A stretch of DNA of 64,000 bases, from contig OX597821.1 in the NCBI GenBank assembly GCA_951406725.2, positions 91,016,001 through 91,080,000 of the forward strand, written 5' to 3'. Each line of letters begins with the position of its first letter. Position 1 is the first letter of the stretch. Both the position numbers and the translations under genes were made by a program. The notes beneath the pieces were generated by a model that was not told the DNA's origin, ran no database searches, and was given only the letters and a program-made list of their open reading frames with translations. Source of the stretch: Octopus vulgaris (Eukaryota). Shown piece after piece: positions 1,086 to 53,208 of the stretch.

Positions 1086-2181
<1,096 letters not shown>

Positions 2182-4082: not shown

Positions 4083-4624
<542 letters not shown>

Positions 4625-7283: not shown

Positions 7284-7682
7284 GGCGCAGGAGTGGCTGT
7301 GTGGTAAGTAGCTTGCTAACCAACCACATGGTTCCGGGTTCAGTCCCACTGCGTGGCATCTTGGGCAAGTGTCTTCTGATATAGCCCCGGGCCGACCAAT
7401 GCCTTGTGAGTGGATTTGGTAGACGGAAACTGAAAGAAGCCTGTCGTATATATGTATATATATATATATGTATATGTGTGTGTGTGTTTGTCCCCCTAGC
7501 ATTGCTTGACAACCGATGCTGGTGTGTTTACGTCCCCGTCACTTAGCGGTTCGGCAAAAGAGACCGATAGAATAAGTACTGGGCTTACAAAGAATAAGTC
7601 CCGGTGTCGATTTGGTCGACTAAAGGCTGTGCTCCAGCATGGCCGCAGTCAAATGACTGAAACAAGTAAAAGAGTAAGAGTA
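7284..7682 (+). mobile_element. SINE family A
   Basis: Full-length copy. Confidence 0.92.
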
Positions 7683-8119: not shown

Positions 8120-8431
8120 TCATCAGTAAGATGAAACCCAGACTGTTGCTGTAACTGGTCCTGAAGCGTGATGGCATTGCTGGGATCTTTGGTACTATGC
8201 AGTGTCGTCCCGTTCTGGCATTGGTGTAGCCNNNNNNNNNNNNNNNNNNNNNNNNNNNNNNNNNNNNNNNNNNNNNNNNNNNNNNNNNNNNNNNNNNNNN
8301 NNNNNNNNNNNNNNNNNNNNNNNNNNNNNNNTGCAACATCGCTGGAGTTCTGTATTTTCTGCGAGACTTTCGTATCATCTGCATAGCCTGCCAGAGTGGC
8401 TGTCTGGGCATTTGAGGGCATATCTGAGAGG

Positions 8432-13912: not shown

Positions 13913-14336
13913 AATACCTATTTCTTTATTGCCCACAAGGGGCTAAACATACAGGAGGAGACAAACATGAACAGACATAGGTATTAAGTCGATTATATCG
14001 ACCCCAGTGCTTAACTGGTACTTAATTTATCGACCCCGAAAGGATGAAAGGCAAAGTCGACCTCGGCGGAATTTGAACTCACAACGTAACGGCAGCCGAA
14101 ATACCTATTTCTTTATTACCCACAAGGGGCTAAACACAAAGGGGACAAACATGGACAGACATAGGTATTAAGTCGATTATATCGACCCCAGTGCTTAACA
14201 GGTACTTAATTTATCGACCCCGAAAGGATGAAAGGCAAAGTCGACCTCGGTGGAATTTGAACTCACAACGTAACGGTAGCCGAAATACCGCTAAGCATTT
14301 CGCCCGACGTGCTAACGTTTCTGCCAGCTCGCCGCC
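13913..14336 (-). mobile_element. SINE family B dimer (head plus two ~184-bp units)
   Basis: GAAATACC unit boundary at 14098 and 14282; CTGGTAATACC duplicated at both flanks. Confidence 0.9.
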
Positions 14337-20546: not shown

Positions 20547-20705
20547 CAGGAGTGGCTGTGTAGTAAGTAGCTTGTTTACCAACCACATAGTTCCGGGTTC
20601 AGTCCCACTGCGTGACATCTTGGGCAAGTGTATTCTGCTATAGCCCCGGGCCGACCAATGCCTTGTGAGTGGATTTGTTAGACGGAAACTGAAAGAAGCC
20701 TGTCG

Positions 20706-20738
<33 letters not shown>

Positions 20739-20966
20739 ATGTATGTGCGTGTGTGTTTGTGTGTCTGTGTTTGTCCCCCTAGCATTGCTTGACAACCGAT
20801 GCTGGTGTGTTTACGTCCCCGTCACTTAGCGGTTCAGCAAAAGAAGACCGATAGAATAAGTACTGGGCTTACAAAGAATAAGTCCCGGGGTCGATTTGCT
20901 CGACTAAAGGCGGTGCTCCAGTATGGCCGCAGTCAAATGACTGAAACAAGTAAAAGAGTAAAGAGT
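20547..20966 (+). mobile_element. SINE family A flanked by a 78-bp direct duplication
   Basis: 20469-20546 matches 20967-21044 with 3 mismatches. Confidence 0.92.
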
Positions 20967-21996: not shown

Positions 21997-22031
21997 GTTT
22001 CTGACGAAGAGCTCCGCTCGAAACGTTAAAT
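21997..22031 (+). ncRNA. Minimal hammerhead motif in a TA-flanked element (about 21940-22135)
   Basis: GUUU-CUGACGA-a-GAGC ucc GCUC-GAA-ACGU-U/AAAU; loopless palindromic stem III. Confidence 0.6.
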
Positions 22032-22135
22032 CCTCCTTCTTTCTTTCCTTTCTTGAGCGTCCAATAACACTATGCTTGTTCCACGTCCTCGCGTTGTTGT
22101 GTCTTCTTTTTGTGTTTTCATGTTTGTATTAACTT

Positions 22136-26228: not shown

Positions 26229-26345
26229 GGTATTATTTCAATGGTTATCACACTCAGTGACATTGCTGGTGCAATAGCAATTTCATTATCACTGTTACGC
26301 ACTTAATAATTAAAATCTATTTAAGAATGTCCCTACATTTAAGAA

Positions 26346-26712
26346 TGTTCCGGGTTCAGTCCCACTGCGTGGCATCTTAGGCAAGTGTCTTCTGCTATAG
26401 CCCCGGGCCGACCAAAGCCTTGTGAGTGGATTTGGTAGACGGAAACTGAAAGAAGCCTGTCGTATATATGTATATATATGTGTGTGTGTGTATATGTTTG
26501 TGTGTCTGTATTTGTCCCTCTAGCATTGCTTGACAACCGATGCTGGTGTGTTTACGTCCCCGTCACTTAGCGGTTCGGCAAAAGAGACCGATAGAATAAG
26601 TACTGGGCTTACAAAGAATAAGTCTCGGGGTCGATTTGCTCGACTAAAGGCGGTGCTCCAGCATGGCCGCAGTCAAATGACTGAAACAAGTAAAAGAGTA
26701 AAAGAGAGAGTA
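26346..26712 (+). mobile_element. SINE family A, slightly 5'-truncated
   Basis: Begins at the B-box region. Confidence 0.9.
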
Positions 26713-34649: not shown

Positions 34650-35400
34650 TATCGGCTATTCACGAACGATAAATCGCTATCGCTTTCTAGATGTTTATCC
34701 ACTTCCTAATATTGACGACCTAGCACCTTCTGTTTCCTACAATAAATTCTTCAGTAAACTGAATCTGAAAGCAGCATAGCATCAGATTCTACTCCACAAT
34801 GACGATAAGAGATACATGGCATTTCAATCTGATGGGCGCTTATTCCAGTTTATAAGGTTATCCTTTGGTGTGACTAATATCGTAAGTGCTTTCAAGGAGT
34901 GATTGATAGCATAATTACCGACAATGATATCAAAGGATTTCACGCTTATCTCGACAATGTTATTGTCGTTGACAAAACTATTAAGGAGCACGATGGGAAC
35001 TTGGCTCGATATATTTCAGTTTCTAAGAGACTAAACATTGTATTGGACAATGACAAATGTTTTCTCAGTCAAGCATCCATTTGTTACTTAGGATGTAAAA
35101 TAGAAAATAATTCTTTGTAACGTATTTCGGAAAGAATAAAACTTCACCTCATCGATTACCTGCTAAACAATCCCAGCGATGACTAGGATTGTTTCGCTAC
35201 TACTTTAAGTGAATGTCTCTTTTCCCGGACATAACTGAACCCAACATTGTCATTGTAGAAGAAGAGAAACGTAGACGTTATTCATTCGTTTAAAACTCCA
35301 ATGGCTTATGACACATACATTTACATTTTTCCAGGTGTTCCATTAAATGATGACACAGAGGATGCTGAAACCGCAATTTCAGGTGTTCTTGCAATAAACA
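34650..35400 (+). pseudogene. Ty3/Gypsy pol relic (RT and start of RNase H)
   Basis: DVYPLPNIDDL...FFSKLNLKAA*HQI...LFQFIRLSFGVTN / AYLDNVIV...EHDGNL...KC...YLG, then EDAETAISGVL. Stops and frameshifts. Confidence 0.88.
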
Positions 35401-36046: not shown

Positions 36047-36089
<43 letters not shown>

Positions 36090-36127
36090 CATATATATAT
36101 GTATATATGTATGAATATATATATATA

Positions 36128-36235
<108 letters not shown>

Positions 36236-36431
36236 AGTAGTTGAATGAATTATCTTAGTATGGATAATTCGGTTAACCGATACCTGGGTAGCAAATTCAC
36301 GTCAGAAAAACACGGTTAAAGCTACATGCCAAGGGCAGATATCACGTGCTTTCGTGTGGAAATTTGTGTGTTTTTTTAATACAAATAAATGAAAGAATGG
36401 AGTTGAACGACGATTTAACAAAATTCCTTTA

Positions 36432-36514
36432 TTCTCGACATATGTTTCGAAGGTTGCATATTCCTAATTTCGAAGGAATAAGGCGTGCATTATGCCGCCT
36501 TCTCATCAGGAAAA
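36432..36514 (-). ncRNA. Type I hammerhead ribozyme (left arm)
   Basis: Reverse-complement copy of 36654-36736. Confidence 0.85.
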
Positions 36515-36653
36515 ACAAGGAACTTATGTCAGCATCAAGATGAACAAAAACTCTTAGATGGCTGCCCACACGGAGTCCATTATCGCTATAGACTCCGTGT
36601 GGGCAGCCATCTAAGAGTTTTTGTTCATCTTGATGCTGACATAAGTTCCTTGT

Positions 36654-36736
36654 TTTTCCTGATGAGAAGGCGGCATAATGCACCCCTTATTCCTTCGAAA
36701 TTAGGAATATGCAACCTTCGAAACATATGTCGAGAA
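36654..36736 (+). ncRNA. Type I hammerhead ribozyme, canonical core
   Basis: UUUUC-CUGAUGA-GAAGG..(44 nt)..CCUUC-GAA-ACAUAUGU-C/GAGAA; GUC triplet, predicted cut after 36731; AATAAA immediately downstream. Confidence 0.85.
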
Positions 36737-36777
36737 TAAAGGAATTTTGTTAAATTGTCGTTCAACTCCATTCTTTC

Positions 36778-36820
<43 letters not shown>

Positions 36821-36822
36821 CA

Positions 36823-36911
<89 letters not shown>

Positions 36912-37779: not shown

Positions 37780-37803
37780 ATATATATATATTTATTATAT
37801 AGA

Positions 37804-37860
37804 AGGAGCTTCTACAGGACTAGAACTGTTTCATTCAAGAGAAATCTTCAGGAAGCTCCT
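37804..37860 (-). ncRNA. Type I hammerhead ribozyme with 9-bp stem I
   Basis: AGGAGCUUC-CUGAAGA-uUUC ucuu GAAu-GAA-ACAG uucuaguc CUGU-A/GAAGCUCCU. Confidence 0.78.
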
Positions 37861-37909
37861 GCTTCCTGAAGATTTCTCTTGAATGAAACAGTTCTAGTCC
37901 TGTAGAAGC
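37861..37909 (+). ncRNA. Type I hammerhead ribozyme with 5-bp stem I
   Basis: GCUUC-CUGAAGA-stem II-GAA-ACAG..CUGU-A/GAAGC; GUA triplet, predicted cut after 37904. Confidence 0.75.
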
Positions 37910-39185
37910 TCCTTCTATATAATAAATTAATTTTACTCTGCTATGTATTGAGTACCTTATTTACTGTGGTTAACCCCGAATCAACCCGGGACCTACATAT
38001 ATATATATATATATATATATATACATTTGTCCAATGTGACATTCAGTGCCAATGAATTCGGAACTACTGAAGAGTGTTTATATTTATGTTTATGTATTCA
38101 CTTATGATAATTCGTGCGGAAGCTCGTAATTTTAATTTGTTCTTCATATCTGCTACTTAAATACTGTCAGACCTAGAACTCCAAATTTAGGTCTCAAGAT
38201 GTTCGTACAATTTTAGAGAATAAAATTATTATTCTAATTTAAAACATATTTATACCTTCCTATGGGATACACTTGAGGAGAAGTTTATGTAGAACAGTAA
38301 CACTTGACCCGCATTCAAGAAAACTGTCAGGAAAACGATGGGGTGACGGTTGTAAGGGAATTGCCTTACGAAATTAGCCTTCTCAATTGTACTGCAAACA
38401 AACAGAAGACTTAGAAAAGGCTATTTATCTTTCCTTGTTCAACGGAGCAGACTTCATTAAGATGTTTGAATACGAAGAATCTTATTTTGACTGTTAAATT
38501 TAAACAAATATGAGCCAAAAGTCGATTATATTACATTGACTGACGCTACCAATCATTATGTTCATAACAAATATCCAGATGTTCAAATTGACTTTGCTTC
38601 CACTGAAGATATTACCTTATCTGAAAAATTGTCTCCCATGAAAAAATCTACCAAGCGATATTTCTATTGAAGTGTGTTCAGTTTGTGACTACCATGATGA
38701 TGACATGCTGAAGATTTAGCCCCAAAACATTTGAATTGTTGCAGACTTTTTCATCGATGACTGCCCCAGCGACCTGCACAGATGTGTAACACAATAAGCA
38801 TGTAAGCAGGAACAGATGAACGTGAATTTTAGTTATTGAAGAAAAAAAATCTAGCCTCCATCACCTGAATTTCATCGTCACTCTACCATTCTTCGAAGCA
38901 CCAGCGGATGCAATGTAATTATTATTGTTACTTCTGGTCTAGGTATATTAAAGTATTGGTTAAAGACTTGTAGTCCCCTTTGCAATAAAAGTAGACAGTC
39001 ACATATTTGCATCTCGGATACAGAGGTTGGGTAGTTGAACTAAAAACGATTTGGTTCTTGGTTTCGCTTTATTTCGTTTCTTAACCGCATGAAGATATGT
39101 TCGATACTAAATTGTGGTGAAGGTTTTTTCATCAGATCTTGAGGATGAAATTTTGGAAGATGGAAACCACAGTGGAGCTTGTTAT

Positions 39186-39975: not shown

Positions 39976-40140
39976 GGCGCAGGAGTGGCTGTGTGGTAAG
40001 TAGCTTGCTAAACAACCACATGGTTCCGGGTTCAGTCCCACTGTGTGGCATCTTGGGCAAGTGTCTTCTGCTATAGCCTTGGGCCGACCAATGCCTTGTG
40101 AGTGGATTTGGTAGACGGAAACTGAAAGAAGCCTGTCGTA

Positions 40141-40207
<67 letters not shown>

Positions 40208-40408: not shown

Positions 40409-40856
40409 GGCGGTGAGCTGGCAGAAACGTTAGCGCGCCGGGCGAAATGCTTAGCGGTATTTCGTCTGTTGTTACGTTCTGAGTTCAAATTCCGCCGAGG
40501 TCGACTTTGCCTTTCATCCTTTCGGGGTCGATAAATTAAGTACCAGTTACGCACTGGGGTCGATGTAATCGATTAAAACCTTTTGTCTGTCCTTGTTTGT
40601 TCCCTCTATGTCTAGCCCCTTGTGGGCAATAAAGAAATAAGAAATGTTAGCGTGCCGGGCGAAATGCTTAGCGGTATTTCCTCTGTCGTTACGTTCTGAG
40701 TTCAAATTCCGCCGAGGTCGACTTTGCCCTTCATCCTTTCGGGGTCGATAAATTAAGTATCAGTTACGCACTGGGGTCGATGTAATCGACTTAATCCCTT
40801 TGTCTGTCCTTGTTTGTCCCCTTCTATGTTTAGTCCCTTTTGGGCAGTAAAGAAAT
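40409..40856 (+). mobile_element. SINE family B dimer inside one 21-bp TSD
   Basis: TSD ATATATTTAACTGCATATTTT at 40385-40405 and 40857-40877. Confidence 0.9.
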
Positions 40857-42269
40857 ATATATTTAACTGCATATTTTCTTACTTAAAGAAAAACCCCAAA
40901 AGATTTTTATAAATTGTGGGGATTTTTATCGGCAGTAATTATTTATTCGCACATTTGGATGATGGGCTTTCATTTGCTGAAGAGTTTCTCTATCAGATAG
41001 TTGCTCTTCTTCATGTGAGATACGCTTTCTTTCATATGAGACTAATTCTGTCACTGAAGATCATCACCTATTCAACGAAAATGCACATCTCGTTGCACAC
41101 TTTTTATTGGAGTGGGTAGTTTTTCTTGTTCAAAATCTGCTAGCGCTCTCAGCTTTCCACGATTTTCATTATCAGAAGTGAATGGAATGGTGCTACAATA
41201 CCGAATCTATCTACGGATTAGTACTCGCAATTGTTGTTAATAAGTAAAGCTGTCTGTGTTGATGGTTATCTCTTAGACATGAAGACATGGCTATATTTTA
41301 TAGATCTTTTTGACAAATCGGGAGATGTGAACGGCACTACCTTCATCTATGGAATTTCTTTTGTGAGTACAACAACCGTATTTGTTATTGTTGAATACGT
41401 TTCTGCTCTTTTAAAATTTCTGAGGCGAAAACATAAAACGACTTTTGGTTTTCCACTCAGAATACTCAATCTTAAGGCCTTCTCCTCAGAACCTTGTACA
41501 GAGCAAACTTCTTGTATTATTTTGAGGTTTCTCATTGTCAAGGATTTTTATTCTCATGATACTCCCCATTCACATCTTACTGAACGGAACGTTAGCACTA
41601 TCCATTTGCCCATACTGTTCGGACGTAAGTGACTACGAACCAGGATTACAAACCATTACTGTTATCTTTAAAATTAAGCCTTATATTTATCCTGTTTAGA
41701 GACCGTTGTAGTTCTCCACAGATTTTGTAGAACAAATTTTTATGCATGTGCAACTTTCAACTTGAGATGCTCAATGCCCTCCCTTTTTCCTCTGCTTTGA
41801 AAATGAATCATGGTATCTTACCTCTTACGTCTACCAATGAAAGAGATTTCACTTAAATGTTTGAGCAAGAGCTATGTCCAAATTCGCCTTACATGAGGTA
41901 GAGAAATCTGTTATACACTTAACAATGCCTAAGTACATCCGCTTCTTCCTTTCGTTTGTAAAATAGACCTCAGTTGGTTGAGGTCTGGCTTTTTAGCAAA
42001 ATGGTACAAAGCCTTAGTCCTTTCAGCAATGTTTCTTAACTCGGATTTCGTTTTTCACGGTACTCTTACGAACGATTGAATTTAGCTAGTATTGAATGTA
42101 CATCATTTCACGAAGTGCATGTGTGTCTGTTGTTGTTGTTCTCAACTGTATTGACTATTATGCCATTTATTTTGTTGAAATGACGTAACTTACTAATTTG
42201 TTACAGCTATTTTTCACTTAGGGAGCTTTTTCATTTACTCAGTTCAAAGAAAAATTCCAATGCTTGAAA

Positions 42270-44039: not shown

Positions 44040-44830
44040 ACTTTAACCCTCAAACTGTTCATCGCCCTTGCTCTTGAAAAAGCTACTAAATCTGGCCATG
44101 AGTGAAGCATGGCTGTGGCAAGTGTATGCCAACACTATCGAATGTTTGCCTGTGCGCTTTATTGATTGTCATAGAATAGGACAGACGAATCGGGAACCGA
44201 TGCAGAACGAATAGAATGATTGCATTGCTTGGAGTAAGTTTGATTCTTGGAATCAGTACTCTCGTGTGAGAATGCGATCCACTTATAATTGACGCTTTGA
44301 TGCTATGCTCATTGAGCGAGCTGAAGTACTTCCAAGCGAGTTCCGTTGCATAGACCTTGTTTTATAAAAGTGTTTCTAAGAAGCATAATAATTGCTCCAA
44401 CATTTAAGTTAAGTGATGGTGAGGCATTCCAGAAGGTGTAAGAGAGTTTATAAAATCCATGGGATAATTCTGGGCTTTTTCTTCATTATCAGAAGTCACT
44501 GAGTCGGTGCCTAGATATGTCGTAGTTTCAGTGGGCAATCTGCCTAGAATGTCTTCATTTACTGCTAAGCAGTCCGAATTTTTAGGGGATAAGGTCACTC
44601 TATTTTTCATTTCTTCTCCTGTACAATTGCCAAATATGTCAGATAACAAAGAATTATTACATATGCATGCCTCAGAAATATCAATAGTATCTTCTGCGAG
44701 ATTATCAATAGAGCTTTGAAGATATCGACTTCCAAGTTGTAGTACCCACCTCGAAAAGTCTTGTTCATTGGCAGGTGTTCTCATGTTTTTGCGTAAGTTG
44801 CATTTGAAGGAAATTATCCCAAAATCAGTT
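44040..44830 (-). pseudogene. PIF1-type helicase relic (Helitron RepHel C-terminal part)
   Basis: NMR...FSRWVLQLG...LSPKN...YPMDFINSLTPSGMPHHHL*.NVGAIIMLLRN...LCNGTRL...LIPRIKL...FPIRLSYSMTINKA..QTFD.VGI.L..PCFTHGQ..VAFSR. Disrupted. Confidence 0.9.
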
Positions 44831-46487
44831 GTTACTATATACTACAATGAATTTCCTCAGGAATAGAAGGAAACGTTAAAATAGCTTTAGCTACACTACA
44901 TGCTCCGAGAAAAATCTTTTTCCTGTGGAAATCCACGGTTACATCCCACCATTTTGAATTTTCTCAGGCTGTAAGCAAATTGTGTCCAGATGGAAAAATT
45001 TGGGAACGTTATGTAAGTTTTTGTTTATTATTCAATATTCTCAATAATTATGAGGAATTATTTCAGATGTATCATTTTTATGTATCCAGTGAAAAACAAA
45101 CAGAAAGAACCTCAAAGGAAGTGAGCATTGTGCAATGTGCCGTCTATGAAACGTCGAGCTGAAAACATATAAAATTATATTGTATAAAAATGTATGATTA
45201 TTTGTAGTATAACAAAAATAATAATACTTTTTCGATAGTTAAATATGGTTACTATTTAAAGATGCTTACATTTTACACAAAACCAAGGGAAATAACTCGA
45301 ATTTAATTTTAATCCTGGTTTATCTCCTTTGGCGTGACAAACACCGACGGTACAAGCGTATTAATATATAGATATTAACATGGTTTTCATCGTCGTCATC
45401 ATTGCTATTCTTATTACTGTTATAAATATTATTGTTTTTCAACAACAACAAAAAATGACGAGATTCACAGTTAAATCCATGTACGAAAGATGGTATTAAG
45501 AAGCTTGCTAAATGTTGGAATTTACAAAATCCACATGCACAGTGTTGATTAACCAATGAGAATCAAGAGAAAGGTAAATTATTTGGTTCAAATGTTTTGT
45601 GAGCAATATTTAGTTTATATAATTAAAGAGTGAACAATAATTATCAAAAATGTCTTTGTTAGAAAGTCAATGCTCGAAATAAAATACTATTTGAAAAAAG
45701 TTGCTAAAAACAATATTTAATCTAGAGAGAGGAAAGAATAGGATGTAGACTGTAGAGGTAGTGTATAAACCAATAAACTGTATTGCGGTTCAATGTCAAT
45801 AAGTAGAGTATAACACAGATGCTACTGGATCTCCAAAACAATTATATGAGAATAGTTTTATGGAGATATAAAAAAAAAAGTTATTTCAGAAGTGTATAGT
45901 AATAATATAACAGAGAGGATATAGCAGAAAAAAATTAATAGCGCTGTGAAACACGAATTTTGTCCTTGGGGAGTAACTGGAATTTCCTATTTGTTTACCC
46001 CTAGAAATAATGAAAAATGGCTAATATTTCCTTCAAACTTTGCTTTTGCTACATTTATTCAAATCCCAAAGAATCCCTCTCAACACATGGCTCCCGCTTC
46101 AATACTCCCCCTGCTCATGATCACAGATGCACTAATTGTCAGCAACGAAGGGATATGCTCAAGGGGTTAAGGTCAAGCAAGTGACAAACAAATCTGTGGT
46201 ATTGCGCAGAGTATTTCCTATAATGATATTTCTGCTTCAGCAGCTCAGCGCTGAATCTGTCTGAAATGTAATAGAAAATAGGTCAGTTTCAAAACATTGA
46301 TGTGAAGGTCACAAAAGCAAAGTTTGGAGGGAATAATAGTCATTTCCTTTGATTTCTAGATAGAAGCAAAAAGAAAATAACACATGCTGACCAAAAACAA
46401 GAACAAGAATAAAATGTTTGTTACACAGTGTAATGAAATACCAAACTGAGAATGATAGGCAAGGAAACTACAGAAATGTATCATATT

Positions 46488-46711: not shown

Positions 46712-47593
46712 CAAGGTCTGATCAATAAGTATCAAGACTGCTGCCACTGTAAGGAAGCTAAAGTATGCAGAGCAAAGCTGCTTGTTACAGATTGTCCTTG
46801 AATGCTATTGTGCGTGCACACTAAATTTTTATGTTCTAGCTCACTTCTACTGTTTACAGTAGTGCCTGGAAGTAACGTGTGTAGCGTTGACCATGACAGA
46901 GAAAGTTATCATGCCGATTCCTGTTCAGAAGCCTATACAAAGTTGCATAAAATGTATAGAGAAGAGTGCATGAGCCACACACAGATGTACGAGTGATTCA
47001 GACGTTTCCAAGATGACCGAAAAAATGTCGATGATGACGAACGTTCTGGGAGACTTGCAACCAGCAGAACTGAGAAAAACATCGCAGATGTGCGTGCAGC
47101 TGTGAGGGGAAATCGTCGAATCACCATCCGTGAGTTATCAAAGGATGTGCAGATTAGTCATGGTTCAGTTCAGTCCATTATCACTGAAGATTTGGGTATG
47201 AGACACTTGTCTGCCAAGTTTGTGCCAGAACTGCTTTCAGCTAACCAAAAAAATCACTCGGGTTTTAATTGCACAAGATCTCCTTGATTGTGTGAAGAAC
47301 GATGAAAACTTTTTGAAAACTTTGCGTAGGCCTCTGAGCAGGTATTGCCAAGCTCTTGGTAAAATTTGATGCAGATTCTCTGCTCAACTTTCTCTGTGAA
47401 GGTCAATGCGACGATCACACGCTAAACCCCTTCATTCCAAGCATATCTGTAAAAGTAGAAATGTGCTAGAACGTTAAAACTTAGTGCGCCTGCACAACAG
47501 AGTTGAAGCTCAATTTCTGCTACACGGCTTTATTCTGTGTGCTTTAGCTTCGTTACTATAACAACAGTCCGGATACTTATTGATCAGGTTCTG
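46712..47593 (+). mobile_element. Internally deleted mariner transposon
   Basis: TA-flanked imperfect TIRs (caaggtctgatcaataagtatc / gatacttattgatcaggttctg). HTH region DDDERSGR...NRRITIRELS...LGMRHLSAKFVPELL at about 46900-47290 with a stop; the catalytic domain is missing. Confidence 0.9.
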
Positions 47594-48058: not shown

Positions 48059-48270
48059 TACTCTTTACTCTTTTACTTGTTTCAGTCATTTGACTGCGGC
48101 CATGCTGGAGCACCGCCTTTTAATCGAGCAACTCGACCCCAGAACTTATTCTTTTGTAAGCCCAGTACTTATTCTATCGGTCTCTTTTGCCGAACCGCTA
48201 AGTAACGGGGACATAAACACACCAGCATCGGTTGTCAAGCAATGCTAGGGGGACAAACACAGACACACAA

Positions 48271-48329
<59 letters not shown>

Positions 48330-48495
48330 TACGACGGGCTTCTTTCAGTTTCCGTCTACCAAATCCACTCACAAGGCTTTGGTCGGCCCGAGGCTATAGT
48401 AGAAGACACTTGCCCAAGGTGCCACGCAGTGGGACTGAACCCGGAACCATGTGGTTAGTAAGCAAGCTACTTACCACACAGCCACTCCTGCGTCC
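48059..48495 (-). mobile_element. SINE family A
   Basis: Full-length copy. Confidence 0.92.
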
Positions 48496-52760: not shown

Positions 52761-53208
52761 CGGTGAGCTGGCAGAAACGTTAGCACGCCGGGCGAAATGC
52801 GTAGCGGTATTTCGTCTGCCGTTACGTTGTGAGTTCAAATTCCGCCGAGGTCGACTTTACCTTTCATCCTTTCGGGGTCGATAAATTAAGTACCAGTTAC
52901 GCACTGGGGTTGATATAATCGACTTAATCCTCTTGTCCTCTCTGTGTTTGGTCCCTTGTGGGTAGTAAAGAAATAGGTATTTCGTCTGCCGTTACGTTGT
53001 GAGTTCAAATTCCGCCGAGGTCGACTTTACCTTTCATCCTATCGGGGTCGATAAATTAAGTACCAGTCACGCACTGGGGTCAATGTAATCGACTTAATAC
53101 CTATGTCTGTCCTTGTTTGTCCCCTCTATGTTTAGCCCCTTGTGGGTAATAAAGAAATAGGTATTTCGTCTGCCGCTACGATCTGAGTTCAAATTCTGCC
53201 GATGTCAT
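52761..53208 (+). mobile_element. SINE family B multimer (head, two units and a partial third)
   Basis: GGTATTTCGTCTGCCG restarts at 52806, 52976 and 53160. Confidence 0.9.

Follow-up and report, generated by a model that had tools for sequence, protein, structure and literature searches.

A hammerhead-bearing palindrome in Octopus vulgaris as a head-to-head pLTR pair of a Penelope-like retroelement in (TA)n

The palindrome examined here, within a 64,000-nt stretch of Octopus vulgaris DNA (the window; C8:91016001-91080000), is almost certainly a head-to-head pair of pLTRs of a Penelope-like retroelement (PLE) in (TA)n, with a tail on one arm only. Both arms were probably copied from one sense RNA, primed by the two strands of a single target cut. 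The insertion itself is probably an inert by-product, its palindromic form being an expected PLE product that probably does nothing; its value lies in membership of a large, young and measurable set.

The analysis recovered the palindrome as first described. The arms (36385-36577 and 36591-36783, 193 bp each) mirror each other as reverse complements around i+j=73168, on either side of a 13-nt centre, and fail to pair at exactly two positions, 36412/36756 and 36484/36684. The right arm ends at (TA)n, as had been noted, but the insertion does not start at 36385: the left arm extends ~150 nt past the palindrome, to (TA)n at 36232, and the full insertion (36233-36783) therefore adjoins (TA)n at both ends (Table 1). 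The centre had been taken for a spacer. Its bases are element sequence of the right arm, joined to the left arm through CAT at 36578-36580, and the central 10 extra bases of the window copy are oriented as the tail-less arm. A36579 is family position 2603, a hot spot of 5' stops. One sibling (L250) has a junction identical to that of the window copy, with the centre on the opposite arm. An assembly artefact is an unlikely source of the palindrome because the same inverted architecture occurs at dozens of loci in this 2.8-Gb genome, many such inverted joints are present in short-read contigs from other sequencing runs, and the window junction sequence is crossed by contigs of runs X1 and X4 at depth 31-44 with 0-1 differences, though with less than the 31 letters on each side that bridging requires.

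Table 1. Features of the insertion and its flanks, in window coordinates
Feature	Position	Strand	Basis
Left (TA)n target repeat	36079..36232	.	Tandem Repeats Finder and sequence
Long arm: pLTR, family position 2612 to tail end B, including the hammerhead and short end A	36233..36580	-	BLAST against family reference (L001)
One-sided tail, ~150 nt; corresponds to the 5' UTR between pLTR and ORF ATG of full-length copies	36233..36384	-	
Mirror type I hammerhead, predicted cut after C36437	36421..36525	-	
CAT, 3-nt microhomology joining both arms	36578..36580	.	sequence
Short arm: pLTR, family position 2602 to short end A	36578..36783	+	BLAST against family reference
Type I hammerhead, predicted cut after C36731	36643..36747	+	
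Long stem II, 11 bp, covarying, with 44-nt insert 36671-36714	36666..36719	+	
Self-complementary stem III ACAUAUGU	36723..36730	+	
CAACUCCAUU, complement of the ORF start AAUGGAGUUG on full-length RNA; ends A and B would lie inside the pairing	36763..36772	+	
Right (TA)n/(CA)n target repeat	36781..36911	.	Tandem Repeats Finder

The arm belongs to a young repeat with 1,680 candidates, the best matches being 97-98% identical, in agreement with the recent insertion that had been proposed. Upstream of the arm, full copies carry a 3' UTR, a GIY-YIG endonuclease (EN) and a reverse transcriptase (RT), and this RT plus GIY-YIG ORF bears out the preliminary description of an inverted-pLTR insertion of a PLE. 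The parent ORF was found as an 833-aa frame in L062, with YRDD and IYQ...YIG motifs, and in L412 as an 800-aa frame from the ATG with one stop inside the endonuclease; none of the copies retrieved had a fully intact ORF. Pfam and PDB sequence searches of the ORF gave no significant family match, and the assignment to EN+ PLEs therefore rests on motifs and homologues. Partial tandems run in the order pLTR (with hammerhead), end A, tail, end B, ~55 nt and ATG, and the pLTR is contiguous with tail and ORF in L079, L080, L085, L091, L092, L094 and others. Lying between pLTR and ATG, the tail is thus the start of the next unit. The family combines the features that define EN+ PLEs: an ORF with RT and GIY-YIG domains, a partial-tandem pLTR, an inverted 5'-truncated copy with a one-sided tail and a hammerhead in the pLTR.

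A sister Hydra-type family was found in the same genome (L399-L410; L293, L303-L306, L310, L320), with 39% protein identity to the window family. It has a CxCX5C linker, open frames of 970-1,091 aa, two fixed ends and a tail of ~115 nt, and its hammerhead has a long stem II, a GUA cut triplet and a palindromic stem III. Among the few inverted pairs seen, L401, L406, L408 and L409 had one short and one long end. The sister family is the better candidate for in vitro work.

Excerpts of PMC8557442 define the Hydra clade by DKT, RW, CxxC/CxH around the EN E and N, no CCHH and a TA target. The parent protein, whose closest named homologue is from Argonauta hians, reads QSDKT (DK[TS] in 119 of 120 homologues) and has the N-terminal motif RIRWL (RW[KR] in 100 of 120 homologues and in the sister family). 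Compared with the text description in PMC8557442, it lacks CCHH, and CxxC and CxH flank the EN E and N as CGVCxSE...N...CMH. Tail ends lay inside (TA)n in 94 of 97 cases. The CxCX5C linker is present in 114 of the 120 homologues and in the sister family and absent from the window family, where an Asn-rich segment takes its place in every copy translated, old subfamilies included. The window family nested among linker-bearing proteins in a quick tree of 46 rows with a midpoint root (SH-aLRT 95-99), grouping with the linker-bearing sister family and the Argonauta protein, and the linker was therefore likely lost secondarily. Because the linker is missing, we withhold strict Hydra membership and, from the sequence, describe the element as apparently Hydra-derived. 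The Neptune and Nematis clades were rejected, as the CX2-5CxxC linker and the CCHH motif are both missing from the parent protein. A non-LTR retrozyme was likewise rejected: 0 of 162 arms start at the hammerhead cut site (2754-2758), and copies are inverted or solo, not head-to-tail.

The identity of the element, its ends, its target, the pairing of a short end with a tail end, the alleles shared by arms and the 5' stop hot spot were observed directly among the sampled copies of the family. The tail-end 21-mer had 1,053 exact genome matches (control, 0). The first 100 matches by position comprised 99 loci, or 97 after two segmental duplicates were dropped. Among these 97 tail-bearing insertions, 66 had an inverted partner ending at A and 0 had one ending at B; 3 had partners with internal ends, 27 were solo and 1 was unparsed. 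The search for palindromic siblings that had been suggested for the arm was thus positive. The first 70 of 273 end-A matches, at loci partly common to the tail sample, represented 68 insertions: 52 A+B, 1 ambiguous, 11 solo and 4 that were of another kind or ran past the locus. This second sample was checked by hand; L331/L332 and L334/L335 were merged, and L361 and L371 were reassigned by eye. An alternative reading of the L331/L332 locus is A+A plus a separate piece of tail. L205/L206, 58 kb apart, and L220/L221, 18 kb apart, are pairs of insertions that match in arms and flanks and represent local segmental duplications.

Arm lengths in the 66 A+B pairs followed several patterns. The arms of 30 pairs did not overlap. 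Equal 5' stops were seen in 16 pairs with 5.2 expected (p=1e-4), and outside the hot spot in 11 with 3.0 expected (p=2e-4); offsets within this symmetric class were negative in 6, zero in 4 and positive in 6. Where overlapping pairs were asymmetric, the A arm was longer in 13/66 and the B arm in 7/66. Overlap reached at least 190 nt in ~7/66, so that near-identical palindromes number in the tens in this genome. In 8/66 pairs the B arm stopped at 2795-2820, where the A primer sits. Breakpoints were taken as BLAST ends, with an error of a few nt, and the microhomology count (overlap in 39/66) is therefore inflated. Arms that reached position 2621 ended within 2599-2621 in 28 of 45 cases; downstream, the stop hazard was 0.09-0.15 in each of seven 23-nt bins. 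The cut site of the hammerhead was spanned by 55/66 A arms.

Paired arms were closely matched in sequence. At subfamily-diagnostic sites they differed at 33/1,007 (3.3%), compared to 27.9% for random pairs, and no clear mixed-subfamily pair was seen (at most 3 diagnostic mismatches per pair). Over 62 pairs, paired arms had 31 non-majority alleles in common and 134 one-arm differences. The window arms differed at 2 of 182 trimmed sites, compared to 169/7,509 over the 62 pairs (~2.3%); the window copy is young, yet within the arm-divergence range of the family. Arms mutate independently, and the gene conversion offered earlier as an alternative to youth is not required. The sharing of alleles is compatible with one RNA, with two RNAs of the same locus, or with some later conversion.

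Every insertion class is explained if one sense RNA is primed twice at fixed sites. The GIY-YIG endonuclease would cut (TA)n on both strands. One 3'-OH would then prime at B, the tail end, while its counterpart on the other strand would do so at A, which lies 150 nt upstream. A few A/U bases matching TA would help at both sites, and each cDNA would extend toward the 5' end of the RNA. A B-primed cDNA stalling before or at A would give non-overlapping arms; one that displaced the A-primed cDNA and continued would give palindromes. The cDNA 3' ends would finally anneal through 2-5 nt, followed by fill-in. One RNA offers each priming site once, which explains the A+B pairing; its 5' end is common to both cDNAs, hence the equal 5' stops; and stalling of the B-primed RT at the A primer accounts for the abutting arms (8/66 stopping at 2795-2820). 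The window copy would represent two run-off cDNAs that ended at positions 2602 and 2612, neither more than 10 nt from the transcript start, and its palindrome would be near-perfect for that reason. We infer this mechanism from end products, and the strand displacement by PLE RT that overlapping arms on one RNA need is part of the same inference. PLE RT is not known to have RNase H.

In vitro work on an anole PLE is consistent with two primings on one RNA: excerpts of PMC11167929 describe cutting and extension of both strands, two internal starts bounding the tail and no need for hammerhead cleavage. A search of freely readable papers, judged by their titles, found no published twin-priming model for PLEs. 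We advance a wider proposal tentatively, giving it somewhat less than an even chance: PLEs may be two-ended by default, one (TA)n cut priming a single capped sense RNA at two fixed sites, with the downstream RT displacing the upstream cDNA to leave inverted pLTRs, one-sided tails and ribozyme palindromes. The octopus lineage would be a case with a 150-nt tail and a long-stem-II hammerhead, without the cysteine linker.

The hot-spot position 2603 (window 36579) is likely the transcription start. It is the A of TCATTA (TCA+1TTA), an Inr-like motif. A cap-derived extra G was unsupported: G preceded 18/49 arms starting at A2603, many of them supplied by the partner arm, and was missing from 4/4 TA-flanked solo arms. 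D. virilis Penelope carries an internal promoter, according to excerpts of PMC2377424.

A 10-nt segment just before end A (36763-36772) complements the ATG region (L091, L085, L098). The pairing was predicted in 2/3 folds (p ~1.0), where it encloses both priming sites and hides the start codon; variants keep it by G-U only. Overlapping this segment, UCCAUUCUU (window 36766-36775) lies shortly before end A and is common to the window and sister families; in the sister family it sits just 3' of the hammerhead. TCCATTC is also found 3' of the hammerhead in the Hydra-1_aMil row of PMC8557442. UCCAUUCUU is possibly a priming-site signal.

Arms that overlap without strand displacement would be expected if two RNAs were used, one per subunit of a dimeric element protein, each priming one strand, with the asymmetry of the dimer fixing A versus B and both RNAs usually coming from the same locus. 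The anole PLE protein is predicted to be dimeric in excerpts of PMC11167929, and pairing through the palindromic stem III (-8.4 kcal/mol) could hold two RNAs together. We nevertheless consider this unlikely. It leaves unexplained the equal 5' stops off the hot spot (11 vs 3.0) and the 8/66 B arms that stop at 2795-2820, and no pair combined two clearly different subfamilies, diagnostic mismatches being at most 3.

The preliminary description had favoured a fold-back origin or template switching. In such a model one cDNA, or an antisense transcript, hairpins and copies back, the second arm ending at an AT-rich site A; antisense-transcript self-priming is the hypothesis in print for inverted pLTRs (PMC3846280, in excerpt). 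The excess of symmetric palindromes (16/66) is in its favour, as are a locally self-complementary start region and the recurrence of identical junctions (L190, L242, L246). Fold-back is impossible, however, for 43/66 sibling pairs (30 non-overlapping, 13 with a longer A arm); offsets in the symmetric class fall on both sides (6 negative, 4 zero, 6 positive); and the window centre reads with the tail-less arm, which is not expected from a tail-bearing cDNA. These sibling pairs and the orientation of the centre disfavour fold-back for the window palindrome, although its symmetric class could also be made in this way if the centre were later inverted. Overall we regard fold-back as distinctly improbable, and its antisense version is also opposed by the sense-strand edits of an array elsewhere in the genome.

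This array (C20:23329000-23356400; L411, L416, L417; L095, L098-L103) is a ~27-kb tandem and inverted array of the oldest subfamily, whose hammerhead core reads CUGGUGA. Over 3,276 columns it showed 246 A>G changes, compared to 18 G>A and 17 T>C (control pair: 15, 27 and 22), and ~24% of sense-strand A is now G. The edited fraction depended on the 5' neighbour (U 41%, A 25%, C 11%, G 7%), a bias that we take to be the ADAR pattern. The array looks like hyper-edited RNA copied into the genome, and it may have been amplified as DNA. Its direct unit and inverted arm agree in their sense-strand A>G profile, which argues that the template was sense RNA, as two primings on one sense RNA would have it.

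Very improbable is a selected, self-contained unit (MITE-like, or a regulatory dsRNA or ribozyme) that moves or works whole and is kept identical by gene conversion: the tens of near-identical palindromes (~7/66 pairs overlapping by at least 190 nt) and the 31 non-majority alleles common to paired arms would suit it, but arm lengths vary continuously and junctions differ, L250 shares the window junction with its centre on the opposite arm and so points to independent formation, 134 differences affect one arm, and both window hammerheads carry a stem II-weakening allele, the left one being predicted to misfold.

A hammerhead was modelled on each strand, as previously described, and is here assigned to type I, with the core CUGANGA, GAAA and NUH and stems I-III all found. 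On the + strand, CUGAUGA lies at 36659-65 and GAA at 36720-22 (GAA-AC, 36720-24), with GUC placing C17 at C36731, and the predicted cut after this base was correctly sited; C17 of the mirror hammerhead is at 36437. Stem I is UUUUC/GAGAA, extended beyond an internal loop, stem II GAAGG/CCUUC and stem III AC/GU. The 44-nt stem II insert (36671-36714) and the second CCUUCGAAA that had been pointed out are both present, as is AATAAA. The 111-nt domain folded better than 199/200 shuffles (z ~ -3.2), and the active fold lay 2.2 kcal/mol above the MFE. An Rfam scan gave no hammerhead family among the matches listed (150 of 164).

Stem III, ACAUAUGU, has 2 bp in the monomer and 8 bp in a dimer (-8.4 kcal/mol); it reads ACAUGU in some copies and ACAAUUGU or ACGAUCGU in the sister family. 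As modelled, the hammerhead belongs to type I and its stem III is both weak and palindromic, a dimer-type form already known from PLEs; a dimer-type arrangement with low activity is described for metazoan PLE hammerheads in excerpts of PMC4209133. The two window hammerheads are on opposite strands and so would not dimerise in cis. The ribozyme is probably a passenger of the pLTR that needs a dimer or protein to cut, and it would have been uncut in the RNA template of the window copy. Its cut site was rejected as a template end, since 0/162 arms start there.

Comparison among copies gave the fold modest support. In 16 copies picked by hand across subfamilies, 91.8% of 400 cells were paired, and two-sided changes occurred at 4 pairs of stems I and II (U-A/C-G, G-C/A-U, U-A/A-U, A-U/G-C). 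The apparent covariation is graded modest because the rows are related; 53/500 shuffles reached 4 pairs. Two-sided changes in stem II suggest that the insert forms an 11-bp stem II with a 30-nt apical region. The stem II region of the sister family is 55-60 nt of unrelated sequence, which makes the long form a lineage trait, not a quirk of the window copy. Both window arms carry a rare A at 36714 (14/282 arms), which breaks one C-G pair of stem II, and with a private C>G at 36484 the left arm is predicted to fold into a hairpin other than the hammerhead. In older subfamilies GCAA or GGAA replaces the second GAAA, and this lack of conservation speaks against the alternative core register once suggested for it. 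AATAAA shares bases with stem I, and the oldest subfamily has AGTAAA instead, so that a poly(A) signal is unlikely.

The palindrome had also been proposed as a dsRNA and ADAR substrate. As a single strand the whole palindrome folded at -349 kcal/mol, and a read-through RNA would therefore sequester the ribozyme, as suggested. The arms diverge from the centre and transcription of the element would run outward, so the hairpin needs read-through from the host. No host exon was detected around the insertion in the 106 window ORFs scanned with Pfam (106 of 271 candidates), which gave only a weak RT fragment and sub-threshold matches, and short-arm templates showed no A>G excess (private A>G 0.38%, T>C 0.63%). 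The insertion is possibly inside an intron of a large gene. The ADAR pattern in the C20 array implies that RNA of the window family can be a germ-line ADAR substrate.

Should the region be transcribed, other repeats in the window are better sources of dsRNA than the palindrome. Many SINE-like repeats, present in both orientations and 90-96% complementary along 230-360 nt, lie at 4214-4441, 7288-7515, 20547-20774, 26304-26706, 39980-40207, 48257-48492 and other positions, and a second repeat family forms short tandems at 13913-14289, 40423-40857 and 52806-53206. A second palindrome (37783-37934) has ~65-bp arms, a 4-nt centre and a TA context; its repeat family (850 candidates) includes many palindromic copies that are 97-99% identical and of fixed length, unlike the PLE pairs. 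A minimal hammerhead-like motif at 22001-22035 (CUGACGA, AGAGC/GCUC stem, GAAAC), 60 nt from (TA)n, is probably another PLE end. Decayed transposon fragments were seen at 34878-35117 (+), 44407-44841 (-), 46997-47284 (+) and 1371-2173 (-); an RT fragment among them had a weak Pfam RVT_1 match, and the other frames are presumably helicase-like, mariner-like and LINE-end-like, judging by the look of their translations. Positions 8232-8331 are a 100-N assembly gap.

In LINE-1 twin priming, one RNA serves as template for two target 3' ends, and the inverted 5' segment that results is attached through microhomology; the segments are non-overlapping and the second site is variable. The window family differs in that its second site is fixed and its arms often overlap, producing palindromes.

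The remaining comparisons draw on excerpts of the cited papers. EN+ PLE insertions (Pen2a_Av, PMC3846280; PMC8557442; D. virilis Penelope, PMC2377424) also have head-to-head inverted pLTRs with a tail on one side only. In published EN+ PLEs the tail likewise runs into the 5' end of the next unit, and the ~200-bp pLTR has an Inr-like start; an Asn-rich insert between RT and EN is shared with an Adineta PLE. The tail is ~150 nt in the window family compared to 30-40 nt in published EN+ PLEs, the ORF-less two-arm form dominates here, unlike in those elements, and their published mechanism, antisense self-priming, is disfavoured by the present data. The origin of inverted pLTRs and one-sided tails in PLEs is described as undefined in PMC8557442. 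With the Hydra clade of that paper, which includes Hydra-1_Obim of Octopus bimaculoides, the window family shares DKT, CxxC/CxH, no CCHH, a type I hammerhead and (TA)n, and 5' inverted copies are also described for the Hydra-clade Penelope-13_HM. It differs in the Asn-rich segment in place of CxCX5C, in RWL rather than RWK at the RW motif, and in a unit of ~3.5 kb. Its loop II insert is 44 nt, compared to 3-10 nt in the Hydra hammerheads tabulated there; in the accessible rows of File S2 of the same source, long loop 2 precedents were solely PLE-X, and the window hammerhead sequence is unlike that of Hydra-1_oBim. PLE hammerheads in PMC4209133 are also type I and lie in the pLTR, with an enlarged helix II, a small palindromic helix III and G10.1-C11.1, and Schistosoma has opposite-strand pairs 100-700 bp apart. 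Compared to these, the window form has a much longer helix II and loop, an extended stem I with an internal loop, and no unpaired base between A9 and G10.1. The long-stem-II form is common to two octopus families whose proteins share no more than 39% identity.

Anolis Poseidon PAc in vitro (PMC11167929) is alike in its two internal RT starts bounding the tail, its cutting and extension of both strands, its AT-rich target and its uncleaved template; the PAc start sites are adjacent, inside the ORF and non-homologous to the target, whereas in the window family 150 nt separates the two sites, which lie in the 5' UTR and have short TA microhomology. The excerpts covered draw no connection from the PAc start sites to inverted insertions. 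For that existing in vitro system the octopus insertions supply sharp rules: pairing of a short end with a tail end, 5' stops and alleles common to both arms, and a ribozyme left uncut. Non-LTR retrozymes (PMC7229834; bioRxiv 10.64898/2026.07.22.740005) are also short, non-coding and PLE-derived or PLE-mobilised, with a type I hammerhead, but they form head-to-tail tandems bounded by the cut site, whereas copies of the window family are head-to-head, of variable length and not cut-bounded. If (TA)n targeting without the cysteine linker is true, the linker is not the targeting determinant; the window family would be a natural counter-example to the proposed role of the linker in driving (TA)n targeting, assuming mobilisation in cis, and mobilisation in trans by the sister family is possible. 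Inverted pLTRs, one-sided tails, Asn-rich inserts, pLTR hammerheads, opposite-strand pairs and octopus Hydra elements are already published. The window family adds a counted A+B rule, a 150-nt tail, a long stem II and linker-free (TA)n targeting.
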